Part shown: in pieces, positions 1 through 33,010 of the stretch
Layout of the letters: each line of letters begins with the position of its first letter
Numbering within the stretch: the stretch's first letter is position 1
Assembly: GCA_001775445.1 (NCBI GenBank)
Contig: MEWV01000002.1
Location: forward strand, 1 to 35,319
Direction: 5' to 3'
Length of the DNA: 35,319 bases
From: Candidatus Adlerbacteria bacterium RIFCSPHIGHO2_02_FULL_54_18
Lineage (GTDB): Bacteria; Patescibacteriota; Minisyncoccia; Phycocordibacterales; SBAW01
Notes under the pieces: generated by a model
The model's database searches: none
Seen by the model: the letters and a program-made list of their open reading frames with translations, nothing else
Told to the model about the DNA's origin: nothing
Translations under genes and position numbers: made by a program

Positions 1-764
1 ATTTTGAAGCCGTCGATATCTTTTACCTCAGTAGTGAGTGAAATACTGCAGAGCCGTATCGGCTCGCGTGAGAGTTGTTCTTTGACCGCATCGAAGTGCT
101 CGTGGTAAATGTGCGCATCGTTCAGTGTCAAGACACATTCATCGGCAACCGTGTCCGTCACTTGCGCCATCATGTGGAGCAGGAGCGAGTATGAGGCGAT
201 ATTAAATGGTACGCCAAGGAACATGTCGCAACTACGCTGGACCATGTGGAGCGAGAGTTTGCCGTTTGCCACGAAGAACTGAAAGAGCATGTGGCATGGC
301 GGCAGCCCCATTTGGTCTATCTCACCCGGGTTCCACGCAGTGACAATGATACGTCGGTCGGACGGACTTTTCTTTATCTTTTCTACCGCATCCTTAATCT
401 GGTCTACGATGCGGCCGTCGACAGAGCGCCACTTGCGCCACTGTACGCCGTAGATGCGGCCAAGGTCGCCGTCGAACTTTGCCTTTGGTTTCCAATAAGG
501 GGCCTCGGCATTGTCTGTCCATATCGTTCGCTCGGAGCCATTGAGCTCTTTGAGTCGGTTGTCGTCGCTGCTCCCTTCGAGGAACCAGAGCAACTCGCTC
601 TTAACCGCTTTGAACGCGAGCTTCTTTGTAGTGACTGCGGGGAAGCCCTCACTCATCTTGAAGCGCATCTGTATCGCAAACAGGGCGCGGGTGGTCGCGT
701 TACGGCCCACCCGGTCGACACCTTCGTTCATAATTTTGCGGAGTACGTCGTTGTAGATTTTCAT
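1..764 (-). CDS. thyA: thymidylate synthase ThyA, C-terminal end cut by window edge
   Basis: Absent from the ORF track because it runs off the window. My reverse-strand translation from the ATG at 764-762 reads MKIYNDVLRKIMNEGVDRVGRNATTRALFAIQMRF...LLWFLEGSS...GDLGRIYGVQWRKW...DRRIIVTAWNPGE...LPPCHMLFQFFV...LHMVQRSCDMFLGVPFNIASYSLLLHMMA. These are the classic ThyA motifs, including the catalytic Cys in PPCH. Confidence 0.93.
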   Translation of the reverse strand, partial: MKIYNDVLRKIMNEGVDRVGRNATTRALFAIQMRFKMSEGFPAVTTKKLAFKAVKSELLWFLEGSSDDNRLKELNGSERTIWTDNAEAPYWKPKAKFDGDLGRIYGVQWRKWRSVDGRIVDQIKDAVEKIKKSPSDRRIIVTAWNPGEIDQMGLPPCHMLFQFFVANGKLSLHMVQRSCDMFLGVPFNIASYSLLLHMMAQVTDTVADECVLTLNDAHIYHEHFDAVKEQLSREPIRLCSISLTTEVKDIDGFK

Positions 765-4530: not shown

Positions 4531-6075
4531 ATGATTCGCGAACGCATAGAAGAGCAGATACGAGCGGTCGTGGGTGACGTGCCCTTTGTAGTGGCGCGCG
4601 CGGACTCGGTTGCTCACGGTGACTACTACACCAATGCGGCACTTGTGACAAAAACAGACCCTAAAGCACTGGCAGAAAAGCTCAAGGTGGAAGGGGTTGA
4701 ACAGATAGAGGTAGCCGGAAAGTTCATCAACTTCTACCTCTCCCGCGAGGCACTGATTCCAGCCGAACAAAAAATCCCCCAGCAATACGCGGGCAAAACG
4801 ATTATGGTCGAGTATACAAGCCCCAACCTCTTTAAGCCGCTCCACATCGGCAACTTGATTGGGAATATTTTGGGCGAGTCGATTGCGCGTCTGCTCGAGA
4901 AGAGTGGCGCTGACGTCAAGCGGGTTAATTACCCTTCCGATATAGGGCTCACGGTTGCCAAGGGCGTATGGGGGCTTACGCAGACAAAAGGAGACCCCTC
5001 CGACATCGTGGCGCTGGGCGAAGCGTATAAAACTGGCCATGCGGCGTACGAAGACGGATCGGCTAAGGTACAGATTGACGAAATAAACACCGCGCTGTAC
5101 GAAAACTCAAACCCAAAATGGAGCGAGCTGCGGACGGAAGGGGTAGCAACGTCACGGAAGCATTTATCCGAGCTCTGCAAAACACTCGGCACTACGTTTG
5201 ATAAAGAATTTTTTGAGAGCGAGTCCGGATTGCTTGGGGCCGGCATCGTACGCGAGAGTATAGGAACAGTTTTTGAAGAAAGTGAGGGCGCGGTAGTGTA
5301 CCGTGGAGCGCACACGCGGGTGTTTCTCAACTCGCGCGGGCTGCCGACCTATGAGGCAAAAGAGGTCGGACTGTTTGATTTGAAAAGCAAGGCGTATCCG
5401 GACTTCGACACATCTTTGACCGTGACGGGTGGCGAGCAGAAAGACTTTTTTGCAGTGGTGTTTGATGCGATAAAGAAAATCTTTCCTGACCGGACGGCAG
5501 GTAAGAATTTGCAACATATTTCGAATGGCTTTTTAAAACTCACTAACGGAAAGATGTCCTCGCGCTTGGGCAACGTCATTACGGGAGAATCGCTGCTTGC
5601 CGACCTGACCGTAGCTGCGCGGGGAAGGGAAGACGTGGCGGTGGGTGCTATAAAGTATACGGTGCTCAAGTCGGGGAGCGGCAAGGATATTATTTTTGAT
5701 CCGGAGCGGTCACTCTCGCTGGAGGGCGACTCGGGGCCGTACCTGCAGTACGCCCTGGTGCGCGCTAGAGCATTATTGAGAAAAGCTTCTGGAGCTACGG
5801 TAACTCAATTTATTACTCCGCAGAGCAAAACTTTGGAGCGCATACTCATTCATTATCCAGAAGTAGTCGAACGCGCTGCGCGCGAGCTTGAGCCGCACCA
5901 CCTAACAACTTTTCTGACTGAGCTCGCTGCGGAATTTAATAGTTGGTATGCCGCAGAGCGCGTAATTGTTGATGGCACAATAGCTGGTTATACACTCAGC
6001 TTGGTTAAAGTTGTAGAACGCACTCTCTCCCAAGGCCTCAACCTCCTCGGCATTCCGACCCCCGAGGAGATGTAA
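4531..6075 (+). CDS. argS: arginyl-tRNA synthetase
   Basis: Class I HIGH-type motif (PLHIGNLIGN), a KMSK-like GKMSSRLGN, and a C-terminal anticodon-binding region ending ...PTPEEM. ORF 4312.. trimmed to the ATG at 4531 (MIRERIEEQI), because the upstream part overlaps the previous gene. Confidence 0.92.
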   Translation: MIRERIEEQIRAVVGDVPFVVARADSVAHGDYYTNAALVTKTDPKALAEKLKVEGVEQIEVAGKFINFYLSREALIPAEQKIPQQYAGKTIMVEYTSPNLFKPLHIGNLIGNILGESIARLLEKSGADVKRVNYPSDIGLTVAKGVWGLTQTKGDPSDIVALGEAYKTGHAAYEDGSAKVQIDEINTALYENSNPKWSELRTEGVATSRKHLSELCKTLGTTFDKEFFESESGLLGAGIVRESIGTVFEESEGAVVYRGAHTRVFLNSRGLPTYEAKEVGLFDLKSKAYPDFDTSLTVTGGEQKDFFAVVFDAIKKIFPDRTAGKNLQHISNGFLKLTNGKMSSRLGNVITGESLLADLTVAARGREDVAVGAIKYTVLKSGSGKDIIFDPERSLSLEGDSGPYLQYALVRARALLRKASGATVTQFITPQSKTLERILIHYPEVVERAARELEPHHLTTFLTELAAEFNSWYAAERVIVDGTIAGYTLSLVKVVERTLSQGLNLLGIPTPEEM

Positions 6076-6091: not shown

Positions 6092-9000
6092 ATGTCCGAC
6101 CTGTCAAAACGAGAGGAAGAGATTCTAGATTTCTGGAATAAAGAACTCATATTTGAAAAATCGCTAGAGAAGCCCGCGCCCCGAGGCGACTATGTTTTTT
6201 ATGACGGGCCGCCGTTTGCCTCGGGTCTGCCGCACTACGGACACCTCCTGCAGAGCGCAATCAAAGACGCAATTGCGCGCTACCGCACGATGCGGGGTTA
6301 TCGCGTACGTCGGCAGTGGGGGTGGGATTGTCACGGATTGCCGGTGGAGAACCTGGTAGAAAAAGAGCTCGGCATCAAGTCGAAGCGCGACATTGAGCAG
6401 TACGGGATAGAAAAGTTCAACGAAGCGGCGCGCGTCTCTATTATGAAAGACGTGGCCGGCTGGAGGAAAATAATCCCGCGGCTGGGGCGCTGGGTCGACA
6501 TGGACGATGACTACAAGACCATGGACCCGAGCTACACCGAGTCGGTGTGGTGGGCGTTTAAGACACTTTTTAATAAAGGGCTTATTTACGAGGGTTTTAA
6601 GTCGATGTACTTGTGTCCGCGATGCGGCACGACTCTCTCCAACTTCGAGGTGGCGCAAGGGTACAAAGATATCGATGATATCGCGGTGACGGTTAAACTT
6701 CCGCTGGTTGATGAGTTGAACACCTCTTTGCTTGTGTGGACCACGACCGCGTGGACCTTACCGGGCAATGCTGCAGCGGCAGTAAAAGCAGACGCGCTAT
6801 ACGTAAAAGTAAAGGTAAGAGACGAGTTTTTTATTGTGGCGAAGGCGCGCGCGGCTGCCGTGTTTGGCGGCACTGTCGAGGTGGTGGGAGAGATAGTCGG
6901 AAAAGAACTTGCGGGCAAAAAATATCTTCCCCCGTTTTCCTATTTTACAGACGAGTTTGCCAAGAATAAAAATATATGGAGAGTGTACGCGGGGGACTTT
7001 GTGACGATGGAGGATGGCACCGGGGTGGTGCACATTGCGCCTGCGTTCGGCGCCGATGACCTGGCGCTTGCACAAAAGAACGCCGTTCCGCTTGTGAGGC
7101 ACGTGACCGATGAGGGAAAGTTTGTTCAAAAAGTTACCGATTTTGCCAGCATGTCGGTAAAGCCGAAGGGGAATCCGCGCGAGACGGACGAAAAGGTCGC
7201 CGCGCTGCTTAAAGAGCGGGGAGTGCTGTTTAAAGAAGAAAAGATAAAGCACAGCTATCCGCATTGCTGGCGCTGTGACACCCCGCTCCTCAATTGGGCG
7301 GCTACCTCTTGGTTTGTAAAGGTCTCTGCGCTTAAATCAAAACTTTTGAGTGAAAACGCTGCGGTCGGGTGGGTGCCCGAGCATGTCGGCACGGGGCGCT
7401 TCCACAACAGCATTGCAAGCGCGCCCGACTGGGCCATATCGCGCAGCCGCTACTGGGGCGCGCCGCTCCCTGTCTGGCGCAACACTAAAACAAAAGAGAC
7501 AAGGGTCGCGGGCTCGGTGCTCGATGTTCTCAGTATGGCGCGCCGCAGCGGCAACCGCTACTTTATGATGCGTCACGGCGAGGCGGCACACAATGCTACA
7601 AATACTCTCGATCCAAATGGCGATCCCGCGAATCATCTCACCGAAAAGGGGAGGGGAGAGGTGATACATACGGCGACAGAACTCCGGCGCGAGAACATAG
7701 ACCTTATTGTTTCTTCGCCATTTTTGCGTACGCGCGAGACAGCCGAACTTGTCCGTAACGAATTGGGTTTGTCGCAAGCAGTGCTTATGATAGACGAGCG
7801 ATTACATGAGTATAACGAGCAGCCAGATATGCTCGCGGTGCGCCGTCGCATGGGAGATTTTTTGTTCGATATTGAACGCCGATATGTCGGAAAAAATATT
7901 CTTGTGGTGTCCCACGGCAACCCTCTATGGGTACTGCAGCAAGTAGCGCGACACCGATCGAATACAAAGGTCTTTGTCGAAAAGAATATGCTGCGCACTG
8001 CCGAGGTGTGCGAGATTCCTTTTACTCCCTACCCGCATAATCGCGACTACGAGCTCGACCTGCACCGCCCTTATATCGACGACCTTCCGACCGGCGACTG
8101 GAAGCGCGTTCCGGAGGTATTTGACTGCTGGTTTGAGTCCGGCTCGATGCCGTTCGCGAGCGCTCATTATCCGTTTAAAAAGGACGCTTTTAATCCTAAA
8201 CGTTTCTTCGGGTGGGGGAGCAGGGGGTATCCGGCGGACTTTATCGCCGAGGCGCTGGACCAGACACGGGGATGGTTCTACTCGCTCATCGTGCTCGGAG
8301 TGGGGCTCTTCGGCCGCGCGCCGTATAAAAACGTTATAACCACCGGGCTTATACTCGCCTCCGACGGGCAAAAAATGAGCAAGCGGCTTAAAAACTATCC
8401 CGACCCAATGGATATAGTGGAGAAGTACGGCGCCGATGCCCTGCGCTACTATCTGCTTTCCTCCCCGGCAATCAAGGGCGAGGATCTACGCTTTCAGGAA
8501 AAAGGGGTAGACGATGTGAGTAAAAAACTACTGATGCGCCTCGACAATGTGCGCAGTTTTTATGACCTGTATGCCGACGGGACAAGGCGCAGTAGCGCCA
8601 GCACACACACGCTTGACCGTTGGATTGTTGGGCGACTGGGAGAGGTGGTGCAGGCGGTATTTACCGGCTTCGAGTTCTACTCTCTTGATGCCGCCTCCCG
8701 TCCGATGGCGGAGTTTATCGATGACCTTTCGGTATGGTATGTGCGGCGCTCCCGAGAGCGGTTCAAAAACGGCGGCGAGGACAAGACCGATGCGCTGGCC
8801 ACGCTCCGGTACGTGCTCTTTACCTTGGCGCAGGTGACGGCTCCAGTGATGCCGTTTTTTTCCGACGCTCTCTACCGTAGTGTCAAAGAAGAGGGCGACC
8901 CCGAGAGCGTACACCTCTCGGCGTGGCCCGAGGCGGGTATCGTCGACGGAGATCTTTTGAGGAACATGGCGGTCGTACGTACACTGGCCTCCAAAGGGTT

Positions 9001-9388
9001 GCAGTTGCGCGAACACTCTGGCATAAAAGTGCGCCAGCCCTTGGAGGCATTTGAGATCTCGACACAAGTTTCCGAAACGCTTATGCCGATTTTGCTTGAT
9101 GAAATTAATGTAAAAAAAATAATCTATACCCCCGGACTAAAAGAAGACACTCTCGATACCGCTCTTACGCCAGAGCTTAAAGAAGAGGGGACAGTGCGCG
9201 AGTGGGTTCGCGCGATACAGGAATGGCGCAAGACCTCAAAACTTTCGGTAAGCGACCGCCCCGGCCTACTCATACAAACACCTGATGCGGAGTTTATCCG
9301 CGCGCATAGAGAGGTGCTCATAGAGGCAACCGGTCTTTTGTCGCTTGAAACAAAACAATCCGAAGAAACGGTCTTTGAGCGACTATAG
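6092..9388 (+). CDS. ileS: isoleucyl-tRNA synthetase (type 2 / eukaryote-like KMSKRLKNYPDP form) with nested histidine-phosphatase domain
   Basis: PPFASGLPHYGHLL (HIGH), the CP1 editing-region motif TTTAWTLPGN, WAISRSRYWGAPLPVW, HRPYIDD, FDCWFESGSMPFA and KMSKRLKNYPDP. Confidence 0.95.
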   Translation: MSDLSKREEEILDFWNKELIFEKSLEKPAPRGDYVFYDGPPFASGLPHYGHLLQSAIKDAIARYRTMRGYRVRRQWGWDCHGLPVENLVEKELGIKSKRDIEQYGIEKFNEAARVSIMKDVAGWRKIIPRLGRWVDMDDDYKTMDPSYTESVWWAFKTLFNKGLIYEGFKSMYLCPRCGTTLSNFEVAQGYKDIDDIAVTVKLPLVDELNTSLLVWTTTAWTLPGNAAAAVKADALYVKVKVRDEFFIVAKARAAAVFGGTVEVVGEIVGKELAGKKYLPPFSYFTDEFAKNKNIWRVYAGDFVTMEDGTGVVHIAPAFGADDLALAQKNAVPLVRHVTDEGKFVQKVTDFASMSVKPKGNPRETDEKVAALLKERGVLFKEEKIKHSYPHCWRCDTPLLNWAATSWFVKVSALKSKLLSENAAVGWVPEHVGTGRFHNSIASAPDWAISRSRYWGAPLPVWRNTKTKETRVAGSVLDVLSMARRSGNRYFMMRHGEAAHNATNTLDPNGDPANHLTEKGRGEVIHTATELRRENIDLIVSSPFLRTRETAELVRNELGLSQAVLMIDERLHEYNEQPDMLAVRRRMGDFLFDIERRYVGKNILVVSHGNPLWVLQQVARHRSNTKVFVEKNMLRTAEVCEIPFTPYPHNRDYELDLHRPYIDDLPTGDWKRVPEVFDCWFESGSMPFASAHYPFKKDAFNPKRFFGWGSRGYPADFIAEALDQTRGWFYSLIVLGVGLFGRAPYKNVITTGLILASDGQKMSKRLKNYPDPMDIVEKYGADALRYYLLSSPAIKGEDLRFQEKGVDDVSKKLLMRLDNVRSFYDLYADGTRRSSASTHTLDRWIVGRLGEVVQAVFTGFEFYSLDAASRPMAEFIDDLSVWYVRRSRERFKNGGEDKTDALATLRYVLFTLAQVTAPVMPFFSDALYRSVKEEGDPESVHLSAWPEAGIVDGDLLRNMAVVRTLASKGLQLREHSGIKVRQPLEAFEISTQVSETLMPILLDEINVKKIIYTPGLKEDTLDTALTPELKEEGTVREWVRAIQEWRKTSKLSVSDRPGLLIQTPDAEFIRAHREVLIEATGLLSLETKQSEETVFERL
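7556..8022 (+). other. histidine phosphatase (phosphoglycerate-mutase-like) domain inserted inside IleRS
   Basis: In frame within ileS: RYFMMRHGEAAHN...HLTEKGRGE...IVSSPFLRTRETAE...IDERLHEYN...ILVVSHGNPLWVL. This gives the RHGE, N, R, E and HG residues of branch-1 histidine phosphatases. The domain sits between the IleRS motifs WGAPLPVW and DLHRPYIDD. Confidence 0.8.
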
Positions 9389-9393
9389 CCGCC

Positions 9394-9960
9394 ATGCATC
9401 AAAAACATATCACCGAGGGGATAGTGCTCGGCAAGCACGGAGTAGGCGAGGCCAATGTGCTGGTGTTGGTGCTGACCGAAGAGCTCGGGCTTCTGCGCGC
9501 CAAAGCAGTAAGCGCGCGGAGGGAGGACTCCAAACTGCGCTACGGGCTCGAAACGCTCTCATGTGGAAGATACTCTTTTGTGCAGGGGAAAAACGGATGG
9601 CGGCTAACCGGTGCCGACAGCGTGTCTCGTGAGTTGTTGTCCGCCGATGCAGTGCGCCGCGCGGCGGCAGGGCGGGTGACACGCCTCCTGCTCCGGCTCG
9701 TACAAGGCGAGGAGGCCTCTGCTCTTTATGCGACGGTTATGGAAGGCCTCCGCGCGCTCGTTTTTAGCGAGCATCCGAATGCAACGGAGGTGGTGTTGGT
9801 GCTAAGGATTCTCTCGCGACTCGGCTATTTGCCGCACACTCCGGCGCTTGAGCCCTTTGTGGACGGGGAGTTCAGTGTTGAGCTCTCTGCCAAAGCACTG
9901 GAATCCCGCGCGCTCCTTATCCGCACCATCAACGAGTCCCTGCAGGCCTCGGGGCTCTAG
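9394..9960 (+). CDS. recO: DNA repair protein RecO (short form)
   Basis: N-terminal OB-fold signature (EGIVLGKHGVGEANVLVLVLTEELGLLRAKA..ARR..SKLRYGLE). At 188 aa it appears to lack a zinc-finger segment. Confidence 0.75.
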   Translation: MHQKHITEGIVLGKHGVGEANVLVLVLTEELGLLRAKAVSARREDSKLRYGLETLSCGRYSFVQGKNGWRLTGADSVSRELLSADAVRRAAAGRVTRLLLRLVQGEEASALYATVMEGLRALVFSEHPNATEVVLVLRILSRLGYLPHTPALEPFVDGEFSVELSAKALESRALLIRTINESLQASGL

Positions 9961-9972: not shown

Positions 9973-11898
9973 ATGCACGAGGATAAGAGCGAGGTAGAGC
10001 AGCTTAAGGACAAGCTCTACTCGCGCGGGCAGGAGGGAATTGCACAAGACATCCGCGCTCCGCTTGAGCAAAGCGACGCCTACGCGCCGCCCGTGTGGGA
10101 GGGCGGGTCACTGCTGCGCGGCCCTAAGTCGGCTTTCTATGCGATGCCGGCGGGGGCGAAGATGTCTTTTTCCACCAAGTTTTTAATAGGGTCAGCCGCC
10201 TTTTTTGCGATAGCGGCGGTGGGTGCGACGGTCTTCTTTTTTACCGGGGGAAATTATGTTTCCTCGCAAAACATAGACCTGCAAATTGTGGCACCTCCGC
10301 TTATAAACGGCGGGACGCAGGCCGACCTTCAGTTTATTATCACCAACCGCAATCCGGCCCAGCTGCAACTGGCCGACCTCATCATCACCTATCCGCAAGG
10401 GACACGCGATCCGAAGAACCCTCAAAAGGCCCTCACGCAGGAGCGTATCTCGGTGGGTACGCTCGCCTCCGGCCGGCAGACAAAACTCACGAGCGCGGCA
10501 CTCTTTTACGGCGCGGAGGGTTCGACGCAGACCATCCGTGCAACGCTTCAGTACAGTGTAGAGGGCAGTGTCGCTGTTTTTACCAAAGACGTCAATACGG
10601 AGCTCACGCTCGGCTCCTCGCCGGTCTCGGTCTCGGTCGACGCGCCGTCAGAAATAATCGCAGGGCAGGCGTTCTCATTTATCGTAACTGTTCAGAGCAA
10701 CTCGCAAACGCCGGTTGACGACGTGCTTGTCCAGGCACATTATCCGTTCGGCTTTTCTGTAGACAGCACCAGTCCGCGCGCCGATGCCGGCTCGACCCTC
10801 TGGCGGATAGGTACTATGAGTCCGGGTTCAACGAGGGTAATCAAAGTGACCGGTCGCGTCGATGGTCAAGACGGTGATGAAAAGGTCTTTCGTTTTATTG
10901 CGGGGAGCAGCAAGGACCGCACCGGGGCAAAAGTGGATGTTCCGTTCCTTTCGGTGCCGGCAAGCGTCACCGTCCACCGGCCTTTCATTACCGGTTCGAT
11001 ATCCGTAGACAGCAAGACAGGCGAGAAAATATCCGTCGCCGCGGGAAAAACTCTGCAGGGCACTGTCACGTGGCAGAATAATCTCGCCGACTCGGTCGGC
11101 AACGTGGAACTACGTTTGCATCTGGCGGGGCCCGTAATAGACACGGCATCCATTAAATCGAGCAGCGGCTTCTATCAGTCGGGCGACTCAACAATTGTGT
11201 GGACCTCGGCGCAGGACCCCTCGCTTGCGCTGGTGCCGCCGGGCGGAACAGGAACGCTCTCGTTTTCCTTTGCAACGCTGGTGCCTGGAGCGGGCGGCAC
11301 CGTTTATCAAAACCCCACCGTCGACCTCTCGCTTTCGGTCAGGGGCACGCGCTCCGGAGAGAGCGGAGTCCCCGAGGAGGTGACTTCGAGCGCAAAGACA
11401 CAAGTGGTGCTTTCCTCGGCGGTGTCGCTTGCCGCCACCGCGCTCCATAACACCGGGTCTTTTAATAATCCGGGGATACTGCCTCCGCGCGCGGAGTCGA
11501 CTACCTCCTACGCGATACTCTGGAGTATCCGCAATTCCTCCAACGCCATAGGGAACGCGAGTGTCTCGGTGGTACTACCGTCTTACGTGAGTTTTGTGGC
11601 CGCCGCTGGTGGCACCAATATCGTCTACGATAGTGCGAGCCGTACGGTGCGCTGGACTATAGGCGACATAACGGCAGGTGCGGGCTATACCTCGGCGGCG
11701 CTGCAAGGGACATTTCAAGTTGCTCTTACTCCGAGCTCCTCCCAGGTGGGCGAGGTGCCTGCGCTCACCGGCACTGCCGTTCTTGCGGGCACGGACCGCT
11801 TTGCCCAGGTGGGCATTTCGGCGAGCGCCGAGGCGCCCACGACGCGCCTTTCTGAACCGGGTTTTGTAAACGGAATGGAGGTTGTCGCTCCCCGTTAA
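9973..11898 (+). CDS. membrane-anchored, beta-rich extracytoplasmic protein, function unknown
   Basis: 641 aa with a ~65-aa cytoplasmic N-terminus and one TM helix (FLIGSAAFFAIAAVGATVFFF). It is followed by a long Ser/Thr/Val/Gly-rich region that looks like repeated Ig/CARDB-like sandwiches. Confidence 0.6.
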   Translation: MHEDKSEVEQLKDKLYSRGQEGIAQDIRAPLEQSDAYAPPVWEGGSLLRGPKSAFYAMPAGAKMSFSTKFLIGSAAFFAIAAVGATVFFFTGGNYVSSQNIDLQIVAPPLINGGTQADLQFIITNRNPAQLQLADLIITYPQGTRDPKNPQKALTQERISVGTLASGRQTKLTSAALFYGAEGSTQTIRATLQYSVEGSVAVFTKDVNTELTLGSSPVSVSVDAPSEIIAGQAFSFIVTVQSNSQTPVDDVLVQAHYPFGFSVDSTSPRADAGSTLWRIGTMSPGSTRVIKVTGRVDGQDGDEKVFRFIAGSSKDRTGAKVDVPFLSVPASVTVHRPFITGSISVDSKTGEKISVAAGKTLQGTVTWQNNLADSVGNVELRLHLAGPVIDTASIKSSSGFYQSGDSTIVWTSAQDPSLALVPPGGTGTLSFSFATLVPGAGGTVYQNPTVDLSLSVRGTRSGESGVPEEVTSSAKTQVVLSSAVSLAATALHNTGSFNNPGILPPRAESTTSYAILWSIRNSSNAIGNASVSVVLPSYVSFVAAAGGTNIVYDSASRTVRWTIGDITAGAGYTSAALQGTFQVALTPSSSQVGEVPALTGTAVLAGTDRFAQVGISASAEAPTTRLSEPGFVNGMEVVAPR

Positions 11899-11937
11899 AG
11901 CGGGCACAAAAAGCGAAGTCGTGCTATTTTGGTGATT

Positions 11938-13167
11938 ATGGCTGACCACGAAAGGGTGATGGAAAAAATAGTGTCGCTATGCAAACGCCGCGGGTTTGTC
12001 TACCAAGGGTCCGAAATTTACGGCGGGCTCGCTGGCACGTGGGACTATGGCCCGCTCGGGGCTGAACTTGTGGACAATATCAAAAATTGTTGGTGGAAGA
12101 AGTTTTTATACGACCGTGAGGATATATATAAAATAAATGCCGCGATTTTGATGAACCCCGGCGTGTGGGAAGCGAGCGGACATGTGTCTGGTTTTGCCGA
12201 CCCACTCGCGAGTGGCAAATTATTTAACACGATGTTCAAAACTTCCGCAGGAGCAGGAGAGGATGCAGCTACCGTTTATCTGCGGCCGGAGACTGCGGGC
12301 GGCATTTTTGTAAATTTTAAAAACGTTGTGGACTCTTTTCATCCTAAATTGCCGTTCGGCATCGGCCAAATAGGGAAGGCTTTCCGCAATGAGATAGCGC
12401 CGCGCGATTTTATCTTCCGCGTGCGCGAGCTTGAACAAATGGAGATAGAGTACTTTGTTCGCCCCGAGGAGTGGGAACAAAAGTTTGAAGAATGGAGGAG
12501 GGGTGTACATGAATTTATGGAAATGGTCGGTATTGCAAAAAAATCTGTGCATGAACTCGAGGTGCTGGACGGCGAGCGCGCGCACTACAGCAAGCGCACC
12601 ATCGACTTTGAGTTTGACTTCCCGTTTGGGCGCAAGGAATTGTGCGGTTTGGCGTATCGCACCGACTTTGACCTCTCTGCGCACGAAAAAGCTTCGACTG
12701 TCGAACTAAAATATCAGGACCCCGATACCAACAAAAAGTTTACGCCGCACGTCATTGAGCCGTCATTCGGCGTTGAGCGCACGTTCCTCGCGGTACTTGT
12801 CTCTGCGTACACAGAAGACACTCTCGGCGGCGAGACTCGTGTGTATCTAAAATTTAAGCCGTCAGTTGCTCCAATTAAAGCCGCGGTTTTTCCCCTGCTT
12901 AAGAACAAACCCGAGCTCGTAAATAAAGCGCGCGAGATTTATACGGAGCTTAAAAAAGACATTCCGCAGATTATGTGGGACGACAACGGCAACGTGGGCA
13001 AACGCTACCGCCGCCAAGACGAGATAGGCACACCCTACTGCATCACCATCGATTTTCAGACACTCGAGGATAATACTGTTACAATTCGGGACAGGGACAC
13101 GGGAGAGCAGGAGCGCGTCTCCGCTGCAGATCTCTCCACTACTCTATGGAAAAACTTAAAGACATAA
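11938..13167 (+). CDS. glyQS: glycyl-tRNA synthetase (alpha2 dimer type)
   Basis: RRGFVYQGSEIYGGLAGTWDYGPLG, the motif 2 region YLRPETAGGIFVNF, FRNEIAPRDFIFRVREL and IEPSFGVERT. The ORF track starts at TTG 11929. I prefer ATG 11938, which lies 7 nt after a TGcTATTTT box. Confidence 0.92.
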   Translation: MADHERVMEKIVSLCKRRGFVYQGSEIYGGLAGTWDYGPLGAELVDNIKNCWWKKFLYDREDIYKINAAILMNPGVWEASGHVSGFADPLASGKLFNTMFKTSAGAGEDAATVYLRPETAGGIFVNFKNVVDSFHPKLPFGIGQIGKAFRNEIAPRDFIFRVRELEQMEIEYFVRPEEWEQKFEEWRRGVHEFMEMVGIAKKSVHELEVLDGERAHYSKRTIDFEFDFPFGRKELCGLAYRTDFDLSAHEKASTVELKYQDPDTNKKFTPHVIEPSFGVERTFLAVLVSAYTEDTLGGETRVYLKFKPSVAPIKAAVFPLLKNKPELVNKAREIYTELKKDIPQIMWDDNGNVGKRYRRQDEIGTPYCITIDFQTLEDNTVTIRDRDTGEQERVSAADLSTTLWKNLKT

Positions 13168-14237: not shown

Positions 14238-15665
14238 ATGGCTGAAAAGAATTTTTACGTAACGACACCTATCTTTTATCCAAATGCAAATTTGCATTTG
14301 GGGCATGCGTATGTAACGACCCTGACTGACGTTATTGCACGCTACCATCGGTTAGTAGGGGATACTACGTACTTTCTGACGGGTTCGGATGAAAACACTC
14401 AAAAAATATTGTCGGCTGCGGCAGATGCAGGAGTAACCCCACAGCAATTTTTGGACGACAAGGTTGAGGGTTTTGAGAATCTCTTTAAACAGCTCAATAT
14501 TTCGTATGACCAATTTATTCGCACGAGCGATGAAAAGGTTCATTGGCCAGGCGCAGTTGCTTTATGGAAAAAACTGGATGCGGCGGGTGACTTGTACAAA
14601 AAGCAGTACGAAGGCCTCTACTGTGTGGGCCACGAGGCGTTTATCACCGAAAAAGACCTGGTCGACGGCGCATGCCCCGATCACGGAACCGCACCTGAGC
14701 GCATACAAGAAGAGAACTATTTTTTTAAGCTCTCAAAATATACGCAGACCATTAAAACCAAAATCGAATCAGGCGAACTTTGCATTATACCGGAGTCGCG
14801 CCGGCATGAAATTCTTTCGTTGCTTGCCGAAGGATTGCAAGATGTAAGCTTCTCGCGCCCGCGTACTCCTATGTCAGTCGGAATCCCGGTGCCGGGGGAT
14901 ACTACACAGGTTATGTATGTGTGGTGCGACGCGCTCAGCAACTACATTACGGCGCTTGGTTATGGACAGGATGAGACGCTCTATAAAACATTTTGGCCCG
15001 CCAATGTGCATATTATAGGAAAAGATATTTTACGTTTTCATGCGGCTATGTGGCCCGCGATGCTTCTTTCGGCGGGGGAGCCATTGCCCAAAAGCATTCT
15101 GGTGCATGCCATGATACTCTCCGGTGGACGCAAGATGAGTAAGACGCTGGGGAACATCATCGACCCGCAAGAACTCCTGCAAGAGTACGGCACCGACGCG
15201 GTGCGCTACTTTTTGGCTCGGCACATCTCGCCATTTGAGGACGGAGACATAACTCGCGAGCACTTCAAAGACGCCTATAATGCCGATTTGGCAAACGGGC
15301 TCGGCAACCTGGTCGCCCGCATTATGCAGCTTGCACAAACTCATTTAAGCGCGCCAGTTGAACTGGAGTATAAGCCGTTTCCTAAAGAGTATACTGATGC
15401 GTTTGAACGTTTTGAAATTAATAAAGCCGCCGACCATGTGTGGGGCCGTATCCAAGCGCTCGACCAAAAAATTACCGAGATGGCGCCGTTTAAGGTAGTA
15501 AAGGAAGATGAGGAAAAAGGGAGAGGAATAATTATCGAGCTCGTCGTAGAGCTCGCCTGCATCGACCAAATGCTCGAGCCGATTATGCCGCAGACGAGCA
15601 AAAAAATAATCGACGCTATTATGACGAACAAAAAACCTGAAAATCTCTTCCCCCGCAAAGAATAA
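14238..15665 (+). CDS. metG: methionyl-tRNA synthetase (minimal form without C-terminal tRNA-binding domain)
   Basis: FYVTTPIFYPNANLHLGHAY (HIGH), WCDALSNYITALGY and KMSKTLGN. Length 475 aa. Confidence 0.94.
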   Translation: MAEKNFYVTTPIFYPNANLHLGHAYVTTLTDVIARYHRLVGDTTYFLTGSDENTQKILSAAADAGVTPQQFLDDKVEGFENLFKQLNISYDQFIRTSDEKVHWPGAVALWKKLDAAGDLYKKQYEGLYCVGHEAFITEKDLVDGACPDHGTAPERIQEENYFFKLSKYTQTIKTKIESGELCIIPESRRHEILSLLAEGLQDVSFSRPRTPMSVGIPVPGDTTQVMYVWCDALSNYITALGYGQDETLYKTFWPANVHIIGKDILRFHAAMWPAMLLSAGEPLPKSILVHAMILSGGRKMSKTLGNIIDPQELLQEYGTDAVRYFLARHISPFEDGDITREHFKDAYNADLANGLGNLVARIMQLAQTHLSAPVELEYKPFPKEYTDAFERFEINKAADHVWGRIQALDQKITEMAPFKVVKEDEEKGRGIIIELVVELACIDQMLEPIMPQTSKKIIDAIMTNKKPENLFPRKE

Positions 15666-19487: not shown

Positions 19488-19976
19488 ATGACCGCTCAGG
19501 TCAAGAAGCTCCTGCAGTTCGTGACGACGACCAGCGTCGCCGCGATCGAGAGCTTCACGGCCGCCGACAACTTCAAGGTCGACACCAAGAAGGCGGCTAC
19601 GCGGATCTACTATCTCGGCGACAGCTTCAAGAAGCACTTCGGCCGCAAGGAAGAAGGCGCTTCGGAAGCCACTAAGATCAAGGTCCACAAGCTGCTCGAA
19701 GGGTCGCTCGACGCCCCGATCATCACGGAACTCGCCGACAAGTGCGAGATCACGCTGGGTCAGTTCTTCGCTCTGCTCTCGAAGCAAGGGAAGGGCGAGT
19801 CCGGGCCATTGCTCACCAACGGCTGGGCGAACATCGCCTACATCCGCGACGACGAGGGCAACCTCTGGGCGGTCTACGCCCACTGGAGCGCCGGCCGCAG
19901 CGGCTGGAACGTCGAGGCCAGCTCGGTCGAGTACCCGAGCGGGTGGGACGACGGCTACCAGGTCATGTCTCGCTGA
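19488..19976 (+). CDS. DGR variable (target) protein, 162 aa, C-terminal variable region
   Basis: Strong SD (AAGGAG) and GC-rich codons. The last 37 codons (LWAVYAHWSAGRSGWNVEASSVEYPSGWDDGYQVMSR) match the TR except mostly at TR adenines, and the stop codon follows the VR immediately. I see no obvious signal peptide or TM helix. Confidence 0.88.
   Translation: MTAQVKKLLQFVTTTSVAAIESFTAADNFKVDTKKAATRIYYLGDSFKKHFGRKEEGASEATKIKVHKLLEGSLDAPIITELADKCEITLGQFFALLSKQGKGESGPLLTNGWANIAYIRDDEGNLWAVYAHWSAGRSGWNVEASSVEYPSGWDDGYQVMSR
19863..19973 (+). repeat. DGR variable repeat (VR)
   Basis: 111 bp that align without gaps to 20319..20429 (offset 456). There are 97 identities and 14 mismatches, and 12 of the 14 lie at positions where the TR has A. 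Confidence 0.9.
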
Positions 19977-19986
19977 TTCTTTCGAC

Positions 19987-20018
19987 CTTAGGTACTTAGC
20001 TTCGGCTTTGAACCTAAG
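19987..20018 (+). promoter_or_regulatory. hairpin 14 nt downstream of VR (candidate DGR target-recognition hairpin)
   Basis: cttaggt (19987-19993) pairs with acctaag (20012-20018). The 18-nt loop contains agc-ttcg-gct. In characterised DGRs a hairpin or cruciform just 3' of the VR supports homing. Confidence 0.45.
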
Positions 20019-20025
20019 ACCCTTT

Positions 20026-20080
20026 GACCCTCTGTAACTTTGCACCTTTGGTGCAGGGGAGTAGAGGGTCTTTTTATTTT
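20026..20080 (+). terminator. rho-independent terminator after the DGR target gene
   Basis: Outer stem gaccctct (20026-20033) / agagggtc (20063-20070). Inner stem tgcacc (20041-20046) / ggtgca (20050-20055). It is followed by tttttatttt (20071-20080). Confidence 0.75.
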
Positions 20081-20318
20081 TGATATAGTAAAGAAGAGGA
20101 ACGCTCTGGCGTGGCGTTGTAAAAGATTCCGCGCAGCGCCTCGGGCTATCCGTACGGCCGGAATTCTGTCGGAGAAATCTTACGGGAGCGCGCATGCGGA
20201 AGTTCAAAAAAGATAAAGAATCGGTGCGCGGCGCTCTGGGACTTATAGGTCCTGTATACGATACAGCCCGGAGAGTATTCGATGGGTAGTGGAACGGATG
20301 GCGCGGCGCACGATACGA

Positions 20319-20429
20319 CTCTGGGCGGTCAACGCCAACTGGAACGCCGACAATGGCGGCTGGAACGTCGAGGCCAACTCGGTCGAGAACCCGAACAGGT
20401 GGAACGACGGCAACCAGGTCATGTCTCGC
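20319..20429 (+). repeat. DGR template repeat (TR)
   Basis: A-rich at codon-equivalent positions: 9 AAC plus 1 AAT out of 37 triplets, and 27 adenines in total. Twelve of these adenines are substituted in the VR. The reading through it (ORF 20289..20486) is not a plausible protein. Confidence 0.9.
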
Positions 20430-20456
20430 CACTCTTTTCTTTCTCCGCCCCCTGAT

Positions 20457-20810
20457 TTATTTTTCTCGGGACGGAGTTTTCGATAGCAGGCCTTTGCGCC
20501 AACCGCCGACCATTTTCCCCACGCTCTCAACGTCTGTCGCAAGCAAAATATAATGTTTTTGTTCGAGTAAGGTACATTCCCACGCTAGTTGGAGAAAGAA
20601 CCGCAGTAAGTCCGTATTTTGTAAAACTTTTCCTAGCAAGGCTATTTTTCCGTTTCCTGACGCATAGGATGCTTCCCGCAACTGTTCGAGAGCATTCAAA
20701 AAAGTGTCGTCAATCCGCTTGCCTATGCCAAACCGCTCATCGCGTGCCATGTTGCGGCGGATGGGTAGCCATAAGGTGTAAACTTTCTTCGTATGCTCAA
20801 TAACCGGCAA
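20457..20810 (-). CDS. avd: Avd-like accessory variability determinant (four-helix-bundle / 23S rRNA IVS protein family)
   Basis: 117 aa with a TTG start. The N-terminus PVIEHTKKVYTLWL and the segment LLRFFLQLAW...VESVGKMVGGWRKGL parallel, from memory, Bordetella phage bAvd (EPIEEATKCYDQML ... MLRFWLRFLAG ... AEVGRILGSWI). It lies between the TR and the RT but on the opposite strand. Confidence 0.8.
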   Translation of the reverse strand: MPVIEHTKKVYTLWLPIRRNMARDERFGIGKRIDDTFLNALEQLREASYASGNGKIALLGKVLQNTDLLRFFLQLAWECTLLEQKHYILLATDVESVGKMVGGWRKGLLSKTPSREK

Positions 20811-20821
20811 AAAATCCCTGC

Positions 20822-20829
20822 GGGGGGGG
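20822..20829 (+). repeat. G8 homopolymer in the avd-RT divergent spacer
   Basis: cGGGGGGGGt at 20821-20830, lying inside the open upstream extension of the RT reading frame. Confidence 0.95.
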
Positions 20830-20884
20830 TCGTCAAAGAAAGATTTTCGCTCATACGTATGACGATATCATTTCTGTCGAGAAT

Positions 20885-21880
20885 TTGCTCGAAGCGTGGA
20901 AGGAGTTTTTGAGGGGAAAAAAGAAGAAGCAAGATGTGCAGGAATTTCAGGCGGACCTAATACATAACATCTTGTTGCTCCACCGCGACCTAGTAGGTCT
21001 GACCTACTGCCACGATGGCTACCATCACTTCAAAATCTCCGACCCCAAGCCCCGCGATATTCACAAAGCGAGTGTCCGCGACCGCCTGCTCCACCACGCG
21101 CTCTACCAGCAACTTTATCCGTTTTTTGACCGAACGTTTGTTGCTGACTCATATTCTTGCCGAATAGGGAAGGGCACGCATAAAGCTATGAATCAATTCC
21201 GGCACTTTGCCTATCAAGTTTCCAAAAATCACACCCGTACAGCGTGGGTACTCAAATGCGACATCCGCAAGTTTTTTGCCTCAATAGACCATCAAATTCT
21301 CTTTGCGATATTGGAACGTTCCATACCAGAACAAAATATTTTCAATCTTTTGCGCGAGGTGGTCAGTAGCTTCTGTTCCTGTTGTAGGATAAAAAACAAC
21401 ATATACCACTACTCTCCGGTCGGAGAATACAAGTGTATGCGTAAAGGTTTGCCATTAGGAAACCTCACGAGCCAGCTTTTAGTAAATGTCTACATGAACG
21501 AGTTCGACCAGTACGTTAAGCATAAACTTAAGGTCGAGTACTACGCCCGGTACGCGGACGACTTTGTGTTGTTGTCGCACAACAAGCAAGAGCTGGAACA
21601 AGCACTCCGAAAATCGCTAGTATTTCTACAAGGTAGATTAAAACTAGAGCTACATCCCGACAAGGTGTTCATCAAGACATTTGCCTCCGGTGTGGATTTC
21701 CTCGGCTGGGTGCACTTTGCCGACCATCGCGTGCTACGCACCAGCTCCAAACAGAGGATGTTGCGACGTACCCATGGGTTGGAAGAAGAGAGCTCCATAG
21801 TCCAATCGTATCTGGGTTTACTTTCACACGGGAACGCAGAGAAGCTGCATCAAAAAGTTAGGAGTGATTACAAACTCTAA
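20885..21880 (+). CDS. DGR-type reverse transcriptase
   Basis: SYSCRIGKGTHKA, KCDIRKFFASIDH, LPLGNLTSQLLVNVYMNEFD (the I/LGxxxSQ motif diagnostic for DGR RTs), YARYADDFVLL and GVDFLGW. TTG start as in the ORF track. RT-like residues (YDDIISVEN) continue upstream of it in frame without a canonical start codon. Confidence 0.9.
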   Translation: MLEAWKEFLRGKKKKQDVQEFQADLIHNILLLHRDLVGLTYCHDGYHHFKISDPKPRDIHKASVRDRLLHHALYQQLYPFFDRTFVADSYSCRIGKGTHKAMNQFRHFAYQVSKNHTRTAWVLKCDIRKFFASIDHQILFAILERSIPEQNIFNLLREVVSSFCSCCRIKNNIYHYSPVGEYKCMRKGLPLGNLTSQLLVNVYMNEFDQYVKHKLKVEYYARYADDFVLLSHNKQELEQALRKSLVFLQGRLKLELHPDKVFIKTFASGVDFLGWVHFADHRVLRTSSKQRMLRRTHGLEEESSIVQSYLGLLSHGNAEKLHQKVRSDYKL

Positions 21881-32991: not shown

Positions 32992-32995
32992 TTGT
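32971..32995 (+). repeat. perfect palindrome copy 1 (REP / IS200-end-like hairpin)
   Basis: acaatcaaggac g gtccttgattgt, with 12-nt arms. It contains the last codons and the TGA stop (32989-32991) of the SET gene, and ends 16 nt before the transposase ATG. Confidence 0.9.
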
Positions 32996-33010
32996 GCTAA
33001 ACTGAGTTTA

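Follow-up and report, generated by a model that had tools for sequence, protein, structure and literature searches.

A branch-1 histidine-phosphatase domain nested in the CP3 subdomain of a Parcubacteria isoleucyl-tRNA synthetase

Introduction

How does a phosphatase come to lie inside an isoleucyl-tRNA synthetase (IleRS), is it still an enzyme there, and does it serve the synthetase? These questions are raised by one gene in the window, that is, the whole stretch of 35,319 nucleotides that was analysed (contig MEWV01000002.1, Candidatus Adlerbacteria bacterium RIFCSPHIGHO2_02_FULL_54_18). Extra domains of aminoacyl-tRNA synthetases (aaRS) are found mostly at the termini and mostly in eukaryotes, and it is unusual for a bacterial class I synthetase to contain, within its catalytic body, an intact enzyme of an unrelated superfamily. 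Precedents for whole domains within the Rossmann fold of class Ia synthetases are the CP1 editing domain and the leucine-specific domain of LeuRS, one of which is a hydrolase. These are ancient and universal and act on the synthetase's own substrates, whereas the nested phosphatase belongs to an unrelated superfamily and is confined to a CPR clade.

Results

The host gene encodes a complete type-2 IleRS

We observed that ileS is one open reading frame with an uninterrupted frame, and that the GC content is even. The ORF scored 840 bits against TIGR00392 (ileS), above the equivalog cut-off of 621, and the best PDB matches of its product were IleRS2 8c8u, yeast 7d5c and T. thermophilus 1ile (E ~1e-200). 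The full-length AF2 model had a pLDDT of 83.2 and a pTM of 0.69. Both signature motifs that a preliminary description had reported as intact on either side of the insert could be located (Table 1). Among 58 homologues H48 and G50 were invariant and Y49 and H51 nearly so (at least 90%), while K761, M762, S763 and K764 were invariant. The CP1 editing motifs WTTTAWTLPGN and GTGVVHIAPAFG were also found. Together, the profile score, the HIGH and KMSKS motifs, the CP1 motifs and the IleRS2, eukaryotic and T. thermophilus structural matches identify a complete type-2 IleRS with HIGH, KMSKS and CP1 editing motifs intact. It shares with ordinary IleRS2 (8c8u, 1ile, 7d5c) the CP1 editing, CP2, CP2-3 linker, SC fold, anticodon-binding and C-terminal domains.

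Two named IleRS variants were rejected. The mupirocin-resistance enzymes MupA/MupB (NF000257/NF000258) gave 649 and 707 bits against a cut-off of 1900, and ileS_w_GNAT (NF040702) gave 312 bits against 1999, without a GNAT match in Pfam. The NF040702 type is likewise an IleRS with an unrelated catalytic domain inserted in its catalytic body, but the inserted domain in the window is a phosphatase and not a GNAT.

The gene lies 16 nt downstream of the 3' end of argS, for which ATG 4531 is the likely start (the mechanical ORF begins at 4312), and it is followed directly by a recO-like gene. This order corresponds to a conserved argS-(hp)-ileS-recO block, and the recO order was the same in the related loci L081, L087, L090 and L112.

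Table 1. Positions of the genes, motifs and catalytic residues in the window
Feature	Residues	Nucleotides	Strand	Basis or conservation
argS (ArgRS)		4531..6075	+	Pfam Arg_tRNA_synt_N, tRNA-synt_1d, DALR_1
ileS, type-2 (eukaryote/Thermus-like) IleRS with nested domain	1098 aa	6092..9388	+	ORF, TIGR00392
HYGH (HIGH signature motif)	48-51	6233..6244	+	sequence
CP2-CP3 linker APDWAISRSRYWGAPLPVW	444-462	7421..7477	+	alignment to solved IleRS, sequence
WGAPLPVW	455-462		+	sequence
Retained CP3 hairpin and helix RNTKTKETRVAGSVLDVLSMAR	463-484	7478..7543	+	alignment to 1ile, 7d5c, 6ldk
Nested branch-1 histidine phosphatase, including junction motifs	485-650	7544..8041	+	Pfam PF00300, AF2, Foldseek
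RHG: R494, H495 (predicted phospho-accepting nucleophile), G496	494-496	7571..7579	+	sequence
RHGE	494-497		+	sequence
AAHN	498-501		+	sequence
N501, phosphate-binding Asn of RHGxxxxN	501	7592..7594	+	97% conserved
SSPFLRTRET	541-550		+	sequence
R546, second catalytic Arg (in SSPFLRTRET)	546	7727..7729	+	100% conserved
DERLHEY	568-574		+	sequence
E573, predicted general acid (in DERLHEY)	573	7808..7810	+	96% E, else mostly D
VVSHGN	605-610		+	sequence
H608, second catalytic His (in VVSHGN)	608	7913..7915	+	99% conserved
DLHRPYIDD, IleRS CP3 sequence resumes	656-664	8057..8083	+	alignment, sequence
KMSKR (KMSKS signature loop)	761-765	8372..8386	+	sequence
recO-like gene, directly downstream of ileS		9394..9960	+	Pfam RecO_N

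The domain sits in CP3 in place of the zinc-knuckle loop

The domain was placed by alignment to 8c8u, 7d5c and 1ile together with published domain limits. The alignment of the window protein to 1ile, 7d5c and 6ldk continues to residues 477-484. As the CP3 hairpin and helix (residues 463-484) still read as ordinary IleRS, the foreign segment comprises about 166 residues. The in-frame insert is thus real and falls within 7480-8060, where it had first been described, but it is slightly larger than the 155 or so residues then given. Query residues 464-649 correspond to just residues 459-480 of 8c8u, so that the solved enzyme spans in ~20 residues what takes ~185 here. The phosphatase is therefore nested in CP3, where it follows the CP3 helix, precedes the HRPYID strand and takes the place of the small zinc-knuckle loop of ordinary IleRS. 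It had been assigned to the catalytic body; the nesting holds, but the site is the peripheral CP3 subdomain, outside the Rossmann core proper.

CP3 is a variable, peripheral subdomain of IleRS, and as a whole it has 60-70 residues in ordinary IleRS2, with or without a zinc knuckle. The first (CxxC) half of the knuckle is missing from the window IleRS, while the insert-less IleRS of L081/L087 has VWRCKKCNKE; the second (CxC) half is missing as well (LPTGDWKRVPEV). Compared with a zinc-knuckle IleRS, all four knuckle cysteines are absent and a 166-residue enzyme stands there. The CP2-CP3 linker precedes the retained hairpin, and its yeast counterpart, 453-ARDWNVSRNRYWG-465, lines the tRNA A76 / reveromycin pocket (PMC7955072).

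The nested domain is joined to CP3 through an SGNxY motif on its N-terminal side and an FxxxPHN motif on its C-terminal side. In the homologue alignment N488, Y490, F644 and P648 were conserved in 100% and H649 in 99% of sequences, and conservation was higher at these junction residues than in the interior of the domain. The termini resemble those of inteins, with a conserved Ser486 at the start of the segment and a conserved H649-N650 at its end. An intein was rejected: Pfam gave no Hint/intein match, residue 651, at +1, varies (R here, A commonest), and the fold is that of a phosphatase.

The nested domain has the fold and the catalytic residues of a histidine phosphatase

A profile search, a structure prediction and a homologue survey had been proposed as checks, and all three bore out the phosphatase assignment. 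PF00300 (His_Phos_1) scored 72.1 bits on the whole protein (E 6e-20) and 79.2 bits on the excised segment (E 4e-22), with a cut-off of 21.7. The AF2 model of the nested domain had a pLDDT of 87.8, and Foldseek matched it with probability 1.00 to more than 50 histidine-phosphatase family members in the PDB. The top matches (4ij6, 1h2e, 9mmh, 6e4b and 4pz9; probability 1.00, TM 0.61-0.71) are all small-molecule histidine phosphatases, and both AF2 and Foldseek gave the dPGM/PhoE-type alpha/beta fold. We are close to certain that this is a genuine branch-1 histidine-phosphatase fold.

All the branch-1 motifs quoted in the preliminary description were found at the expected coordinates, and all six catalytic residues are present, with conservation of 96-100%. 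The set R494/H495/N501/R546/E573/H608 (RHNREH) was kept in 126 of the 142 full-length homologues with a single insert, so that the domain is conserved rather than degenerate. R494, H495 and R546 were invariant in all 142, and the exchange of E for D was the main variation. Proteins with several copies carried RHNREH in 12 of 14 copies; of the other two, one reads RHAREH and the other is cut off where the protein ends.

Alignment A3 shows the window's copy to be derived and without the cap segment: ~29 residues present in most homologues are deleted right after E573 (residues ~575-580). This deletion is common to the window's subclade, which retains the catalytic residues; the signature was kept in 47 of 47 cap-less forms, with the E-to-D exchange counted. 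A normal cap is kept in most nested domains and in the free-standing relatives. Judged from its residues, the nested domain is probably catalytically active.

These data also bear on whether the fold could be purely structural, an oligomerisation or binding domain that took the place of the CP3 zinc knuckle. The knuckle cysteines are lost where the domain is present, CP3 acts as a protein-protein interface in human IARS1, and proteins of the dPGM family often oligomerise, all of which would suit such a role. A structural role would not maintain the catalytic positions, however, and since all six are conserved over hundreds of sequences, in extra copies and after the cap deletion, we consider it highly improbable.

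We further compared the domain with named phosphatase families. It shares fold, catalytic residues (RHG, N, R, E, H) and similar size with the PhoE/PspA/CobC-type phosphatases, such as G. stearothermophilus PhoE (1h2e), H. thermophilus PspA (4ij5/4ij6), E. coli CobC (6e4b), the riboflavin-pathway HFP (9mmh) and M. tuberculosis GpgP (4pz9). However, it is only 17-22% identical to these and falls below every family cut-off, and unlike these free-standing enzymes the window copy is nested, cap-less and bounded by junction motifs specific to its subfamily. The dPGM assignment was rejected (NF038349, 56 bits against 225; TIGR01258, 26.5 against 81.7; cap segment deleted), and so was SixA (TIGR00249, 42.1 bits against 74.5, with the N-terminal half alone aligned). 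For the window copy CobC (TIGR03162) gave 39.8 bits against 162.9 and PspA (NF045917) 43.7 against 350, and both were rejected; a long-form nested copy (75.9 and 62.9) and a free-standing relative (68.6 and 63.5) also stayed below the respective cut-offs. Since no NCBIfam equivalog cut-off was reached, no substrate can be transferred by homology. The best NCBIfam similarity, 56-87 bits against a cut-off of 326, was to the Rv2228c-type RNase H / CobC-like acid phosphatase (NF005567). This type sets a precedent for a His_Phos_1 domain fused, for no known reason, with an enzyme that acts on nucleic acids, but there the fusion is end to end and the partner enzyme is different, whereas the window's domain is nested.

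The nested phosphatase is a trait of a large Parcubacteria clade

PF00300 was present in 120 of the 120 best IleRS homologues. A tblastn search gave at least 587 confirmed stretches in GTDB species-representative Parcubacteria genomes, with the nested arrangement in 80 of 80 inspected GTDB loci, and a near-identical protein, OGC87659.1, occurred on 12 independent contigs. The nested phosphatase is a trait of a large Parcubacteria clade comprising hundreds of species. In the low-quality relative L084 the ORF is broken by frameshifts. That such artefacts occur in the dataset was all that we found in favour of an assembly chimera, frameshift or mis-joined ORF at 7480-8060. As the nested architecture is repeated in independent assemblies and in hundreds of species, and the window has an uninterrupted frame and uniform GC content, this explanation is refuted with practically no doubt left, and the domain-within-domain reading first proposed is upheld.

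The databases name these proteins only 'isoleucine--tRNA ligase', 'class I tRNA ligase family protein' or 'hypothetical protein'. We found no publication on an IleRS-nested histidine phosphatase in the literature searched (aaRS/IleRS, histidine phosphatase, CPR domain architectures). The preliminary description likewise knew of no described IleRS with this insertion, but the insertion is not unique; it runs through a large clade of Parcubacteria and is already in the public databases.

Relatives elaborate the architecture: some have 2-4 phosphatase copies, some use a second site of insertion, and some have gained a GNAT or P-loop domain. In P0232, P0244 and P0271 a second loop of IleRS, past the KMSKS region, contains further phosphatase copies, and some relatives have tandem copies within CP3. 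P0212 has a His_Phos and a GNAT domain, the latter in a different loop (HYPF..PADF) outside CP3, and P0276 has an added P-loop kinase-like domain.

Free-standing relatives and other fusions

With the insert alone as query, a word-indexed search found no more than 10 free-standing proteins and not the query protein itself; a full-length query and an exhaustive representative search were used instead. In one group of insert-less relatives a free-standing homologue (~190-200 aa) is encoded 1-13 nt upstream of ileS (argS-hp-ileS-recO). The homologue lay immediately upstream of an insert-less ileS in ~28 of ~31 evaluable loci from two divergent IleRS2 sublineages, in a sample from a metagenome scan that was seeded (alignment A5) from proteins already known beside ileS and is biased toward adjacency. 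The idea that this adjacency spans type-1 and type-2 IleRS was rejected, as both divergent groups are type 2. Five further relatives came from the representative search without regard to context (the closest, P0161, and four others). Two of these were evaluable and both were away from ileS, one at adk/secY and one in a glycosyltransferase cluster; the other three are on contigs of ~1 kb or less.

The phosphatase family is also fused to ArgRS and to TsaC, which, like IleRS, are enzymes of tRNA metabolism that convert ATP to AMP and PPi. The ArgRS fusion can be explained by simple loss of a stop codon between neighbouring genes. In CPR, TsaC is joined to a wide range of unrelated enzymes (Ogt, TruB, MPG, NUDIX, GNAT and 2H phosphoesterase), and because its fusions are so promiscuous, being fused says little about a shared function in these genomes. 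When nested, multi-copy and free-standing domains were placed in one neighbour-joining tree, it came out star-like, with the main nested clade and its cap-less subclade coherent and a few nested sequences among the free-standing ones.

Discussion

We propose that the domain is an active phosphomonoesterase. The terminal phosphoryl group would be held by R494, R546, N501 and H608; attack by H495 would give a phospho-histidine intermediate, with E573 as proton donor to the leaving group, and water would then free the phosphate. The domain may derive from the CPR-specific phosphatase family that one relative group encodes as a separate gene upstream of an insert-less ileS, and a partner already present in the operon probably moved into a surface loop that tolerated it.

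The phosphatase may work together with IleRS rather than being a mere passenger. It would be held rigidly beside the CP2-3 linker that forms the tRNA-A76 pocket. The likeliest substrate would be a small phosphate-bearing compound of adenylation or aminoacylation, either a phosphoester of the nucleotide type or one of the products, AMP or PPi for example, though any specific substrate is a doubtful choice; we know of no branch-1 histidine phosphatase that hydrolyses PPi. Because the catalytic His, at the end of strand beta1, is far from the CP3 attachment, the fold topology suggests that the phosphatase pocket may face away from the synthetic site. The upstream-gene adjacency, the second-site and tandem copies, the near-invariant junctions and the ArgRS and TsaC fusions count for a link with IleRS. 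However, free-standing relatives occur elsewhere and CPR fusions are promiscuous, so that coupling to aminoacylation is at most plausible. This functional tie, which we favour only tentatively, is the weakest step and sets the confidence in the whole explanation.

It is also conceivable, although somewhat unlikely, that the domain is an active housekeeping phosphatase (e.g. a broad PhoE-type enzyme for sugars or nucleotides) with no mechanistic link to aminoacylation. CP3, being variable and peripheral, tolerates insertions, and streamlined CPR genomes often fuse co-expressed genes, which would have given such a domain its route into ileS. The closest matches by structure are without exception small-molecule phosphatases, some close free-standing relatives lie away from ileS, the same IleRS clade takes GNAT and P-loop domains in other loops, and the TsaC partners have no obvious common function. 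Yet the pairing with ileS persists over deep divergence in nested, tandem, second-site and adjacent-gene forms, the nearly invariant junction residues suggest a fixed orientation, and repeated extra copies specifically in IleRS are hard to explain by co-expression alone.

A macromolecular substrate appears decidedly unlikely. The domain would then dephosphorylate either IleRS itself, e.g. a KMSKS-loop phospho-serine left by a Hip-type kinase toxin, or the 3'-P/5'-P ends of tRNA-Ile in a form of self-repair. Hip kinases do target the KMSKS-loop serine of GltX and TrpS, and the insertion sites (CP3 and the post-KMSKS loop) flank, in sequence, the catalytic domain's KMSKS-bearing half. The cap deletion in the window's clade opens the active site as in SixA-type protein phosphatases, and the P-loop kinase-like domain of P0276 makes a combination of kinase and phosphatase that recalls RNA end-healing enzymes. 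However, the cap is normal in most nested domains and free-standing relatives, and Foldseek and NCBIfam place the domain nearer to PhoE/PspA/CobC than to SixA. We also saw no basic charge bias, as a signature of nucleic-acid binding, in the nested domain (median pI 7.55), and to our knowledge there is no histidine-phosphatase RNA end-healing enzyme.

In a further reading the phosphatase would be a dedicated working part of the synthetase, a novel type of accessory function built into an aaRS, next to the GNAT and P-loop domains that relatives carry in neighbouring loops; we regard this as quite unlikely. It could possibly remove a product or by-product with a phosphate group that adenylate-forming tRNA enzymes form (IleRS, ArgRS and TsaC are all fused to this family), or possibly reverse an inhibitory phosphorylation of IleRS or tRNA-Ile, e.g. 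by a kinase toxin.

Some consequences are practical. Calls of a phosphatase or 'phosphoglycerate mutase' in metabolic reconstructions of these genomes may stem from the nested domain, and the annotation can be corrected accordingly. Three insertion-tolerant IleRS loops are now mapped, which may serve protein engineering. The locus is also a natural example of how an operon neighbour may enter an internal loop of the next gene. Hundreds of species have kept the nested phosphatase, which in relatives occurs in up to four copies or in the company of GNAT or P-loop domains, and this raises the question of why isoleucine charging in Parcubacteria needs a phosphatase. If the domain were indeed a dedicated part of the synthetase, isoleucine charging in these episymbionts would resist product inhibition or attack.

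A histidine phosphatase lies within CP3 of a type-2 isoleucyl-tRNA synthetase

The ileS product was identified as an isoleucyl-tRNA synthetase (IleRS) by TIGR00392 (840 bits; cut-off 621), and carries the Pfam domains tRNA-synt_1, Anticodon_1 and DUF5915. Its closest solved structures are of type-2 (P. megaterium IleRS2, 8c8u; yeast, 7d5c; T. thermophilus, 1ile; E of about 1e-200 each), while the type-1 structures 1ffy and 8c9e matched much more weakly.

The preliminary description had proposed a histidine phosphatase nested in this enzyme, and the motifs it listed are all present where it had placed them. The identity was borne out by a profile search, in which His_Phos_1 scored 72 bits for the full-length protein and 79 bits (E of 4e-22) for the excised segment by itself, well above the Pfam cut-off of 21.7. 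An AlphaFold2 model of residues 463-652, with 57 homologues as input, gave the phosphatase fold (mean pLDDT 87.8, pTM 0.84). A Foldseek search of the PDB with this model returned branch-1 histidine phosphatases only, led by PspA (4ij6), RosC (9emu), PhoE (1h2e), HFP (9mmh), CobC (6e4b) and GpgP (4pz9) and then the dPGMs (leading matches: probability 1.00, TM 0.61-0.71). We consider the fold and superfamily of the insert, histidine phosphatase of branch 1, to be established. In the full-length IleRS model (pLDDT 83.2, pTM 0.69), most blocks of the insert had a pLDDT of 83-95, and the linkers were confident. The NCBIfam equivalogs for dPGM, SixA, CobC, PspA, GpmB and RNase H/acid phosphatase, compared with the window copy, one long-form nested copy and one free-standing relative, all scored far below their own cut-offs, so a substrate is not transferable to the insert by homology.

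The alignment with 8c8u set query residues 464-649 against chain residues 459-480, and those with 1ile, 7d5c and 6ldk extend to query residues 477-484. The hairpin and helix of CP3 (RNTKTKETRVAGSVLDVLSMAR) therefore belong to the ordinary IleRS sequence, and these limits together define the foreign segment (see table). By the published limits of CP3 (459-526 in yeast, 473-534 in Candida; PMC7955072, PMC7191050), the insert is located in CP3, directly past the CP2-3 linker, which is APDWAISRSRYWG in the window IleRS. The yeast linker (453-ARDWNVSRNRYWG-465) contributes to the pocket that takes up the 3' end of the tRNA (PMC7955072, PMC7191050). CP3 is a peripheral, variable subdomain that forms a zinc knuckle in T. 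thermophilus. In human IARS1, CP3 is a protein-protein interface. The knuckle is present in insert-less CPR relatives (VWRCKKCNKE ... FDCECGD), and all four of its cysteines are gone from the window IleRS (VWRNTKTKE ... LPTGDW).

Features of the IleRS and of the surrounding window
Feature	Window position (nt)	IleRS residues	Remarks
ArgRS gene	4531-6075
ileS ORF	6092-9388 (+)		1098 aa, uninterrupted frame
HYGH		48-51	intact
CP1 editing motifs			WTTTAWTLPGN and GTGVVHIAPAFG, intact
Foreign segment	7544-8041	~485-650
KMSKR		761-765	intact
Large protein	9973-11898		641 aa, DUF11
Aminoacyl-tRNA synthetase gene	11929-13167
Aminoacyl-tRNA synthetase gene	14238-15665
Diversity-generating retroelement	19488-21877
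ORF ending in the variable repeat	19488-19976 (+)		repeat at the 3' end
Variable repeat	19863-19973
Template repeat	20319-20429		111 nt
Reverse transcriptase ORF	20885-21877		RVT_1
Large protein	26772-30269		1165 aa, PG_binding_1
SET-domain ORF	32569-32988		140 aa
IS200-like Y1 transposase-domain ORF	32912-33703		264 aa

Within 11 kb the window has four genes for aminoacyl-tRNA synthetases. Apart from ileS, they encode ArgRS, a class II enzyme whose anticodon domain is of the HGTP type (11929-13167) and MetRS (14238-15665); a Pfam domain search detected no inserted foreign domain in these three. Besides ileS the window encodes dCTP deaminase, thymidylate kinase, SHMT, ArgRS, RecO, MetRS, the class II synthetase, S6, SSB, EF-P, RecA and FtsK, a set that agrees with the Adlerbacteria-type Parcubacterium to which the protein cluster described below assigns the window. 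The window also holds a retroelement whose template and variable repeats are 87% identical, 12 of the 14 mismatches being A in the template and another base in the variable copy. The SET-domain ORF overlaps the start of the transposase-domain ORF. The two large proteins are probably surface proteins, and the longer one is encoded where the window is richest in G+C (0.57-0.63).

The nested arrangement is widespread and its catalytic residues are retained

Each of the 120 IleRS homologues that scored best (59-100% identity; source names Candidatus Adlerbacteria, Nomurabacteria, Kaiserbacteria, Paceibacterota and Minisyncoccia) contains PF00300. When one genome per GTDB species was scanned with the junction pattern GNxY[FHY]xMRHG, tblastn confirmed at least 587 stretches, and the phosphatase lay in frame between two IleRS halves in 80 of the 80 loci inspected. 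An exhaustive search of 50%-identity representatives (E <= 1e-10) gave 286 matching clusters, with IleRS flanks in 99 of the best 150. The nested arrangement is neither an artefact nor rare; the chance that it is an artefact is negligible, and the earlier statement that no frameshift was involved is borne out by the uninterrupted ORF and by the recurrence of the architecture. The 90% cluster of the window protein includes OGC87659.1/OGC89018.1 (UniRef100_A0A1F4Y567, 'isoleucine--tRNA ligase', Candidatus Adlerbacteria), which occurs on 12 contigs. Such sequences have presumably been public since about 2016, judging from the accession series, and their records carry automatic Pfam matches and generic names only.

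Among the 120 homologues, R494, H495 and R546 were conserved in 100%, H608 in 99%, N501 in 97% and E573 in 96%. The full set (RHNREH) was kept in 126 of 142 full-length single-insert proteins pooled from both searches, the remainder being mostly N501 changes or E-to-D; the degeneration considered in the preliminary description is thus not the general pattern. This conservation argues for catalysis by the nested phosphatase, and we regard a silent structural module as very improbable. The junction residues (S475, L480, G487, N488, Y490, F644, P648, H649, N650) are nearly invariant, which suggests that the orientation of the insert on the synthetase is fixed. The insert evolves faster than the synthetase body, being 44-70% identical to the window copy vs 60-73% for the whole protein.

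Insert length, with flanks, is bimodal (roughly 186-190 or 216-225 residues; median 217). Most homologues retain the canonical cap segment (E-x3-G-x3-G-K-x3-E-W ... GGE-T/S-Y), and the window's subclade lacks about 29 residues directly after E573. By this comparison the copy in the window is derived and has lost its cap. The catalytic set was kept in 47 of 47 cap-less proteins (43 RHNREH, 4 RHNRDH).

Free-standing relatives are encoded beside ileS

The closest free-standing relatives obtained by searching with the insert (P0002-P0009) are complete phosphatases of ~190-226 aa, 31-35% identical to it. The genes for P0004 and P0007 each have argS on one side and, on the other, an ileS that lacks the insert (954 and 985 aa) with recO after it, an order that is also the synteny of the window; the gene for P0003 is downstream of argS. 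A metagenome scan gave 36 loci, and the phosphatase gene was directly upstream of ileS in ~28 of ~31 evaluable ones, usually after argS, a count to be read with the caveat that the seed proteins were already known as ileS-adjacent. The stop-to-start gap was mostly 1-13 nt. The type-2 IleRS of these loci fall into two divergent sublineages, with 33-36% and 50-59% identity to the N-terminal half of the window enzyme, and three of the 36 loci were nested forms with the same synteny. The link between phosphatase and ileS is probably older than the insertion; the neighbor-joining tree of phosphatase domains is poorly resolved on the ancestry of the adjacent-gene state and on the number of insertions.

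The phosphatase also occurs away from ileS. Five relatives from the representative search, with P0161 as the closest, were picked irrespective of context; two of the five lay on contigs long enough to be judged, and both of these were elsewhere, one in the adk/secY interval and one beside glycosyltransferase and methyltransferase genes. Two proteins, of L103 (2408-4570) and P0207 (720 and 689 aa), have the phosphatase fused to the ArgRS C-terminus; these probably arose by read-through from argS into the downstream phosphatase gene, which requires only loss of the stop codon. In four clusters (P0172, P0288, P0289, P0290) it is fused to TsaC/Sua5. Patescibacterial TsaC (Sua5/YrdC) is joined most commonly to Ogt (PF01035), then to TruB, MPG (methylpurine glycosylase), NUDIX, GNAT and 2H cyclic phosphodiesterase; since these partners are many and unrelated, fusion in CPR genomes is a weak sign of common function. 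That the nested phosphatase is an unrelated passenger enzyme is, in our judgment, rather unlikely. A cluster in another locus (L088, 2659-6593), whose relation to the insert is only weak (E 4e-4), encodes a Pol-beta-type nucleotidyltransferase, His_Phos, an APH-type kinase, a second His_Phos and AAA_18. Next to it are a D-aminoacyl-tRNA deacylase of archaeal type (PF04414) and an HD protein.

Within IleRS, two tandem copies occupy CP3 in P0222 and P0252; P0232, P0244 and P0271 have one copy there and a second ~75 residues past KMSK, where the synthetase body joins the anticodon-binding domain; P0133 has four. RHNREH was present in 12 of these 14 copies; of the other two, one is RHAREH and one is cut short by the end of the protein. 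A third insertion hot spot is the HYPF..PADF loop, which runs from WFESGSMPFA..HYPF to PADFIAEGLDQTRGWF. In P0276 it holds a P-loop AAA_18-like domain. In P0212 it holds a GNAT domain, and this protein also has an IS200-like Y1_Tnp domain within CP1 (residues 340-461). The window IleRS is not a member of the existing NCBIfam family 'ileS_w_GNAT' (312 bits vs 1999).

Proposed role of the nested phosphatase

Going by the mechanism of the family and by the residues that are conserved here, R494, R546, N501 and H608 would hold the terminal phosphoryl group, H495 would attack it to form a phospho-histidine, E573 would give a proton to the leaving group, and water would free the phosphate. We favour a small phosphate-bearing compound as the likely substrate class, because the structural neighbours are all small-molecule phosphatases and most copies have the cap. 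A macromolecular phosphatase working on IleRS or on tRNA ends seems improbable. The three fusion partners, IleRS, ArgRS and TsaC, all turn ATP into AMP and PPi in tRNA-related reactions. As a lead rather than a result, this hints that the substrate may be a product or by-product of the nucleotide type.

The single most likely reading, held tentatively, is a functional tie of the phosphatase to IleRS, since the pairing with ileS persists in four forms (as an adjacent gene, as a nested domain, in tandem and at a second site), the junctions look rigid and the catalytic residues are retained. A caution comes from the fold topology: the catalytic histidine is at that end of strand beta1 which is more distant from where the insert joins CP3, and the pocket may therefore point away from the synthetic site. 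The preliminary description knew of no such enzyme, and in the full-text literature and preprints searched, no IleRS or other aminoacyl-tRNA synthetase was described as having a histidine-phosphatase domain. The arrangement belongs to a known phenomenon, domain accretion in aminoacyl-tRNA synthetases, within which it stands out as nested, enzymatically intact by sequence, clade-wide and multiplied.
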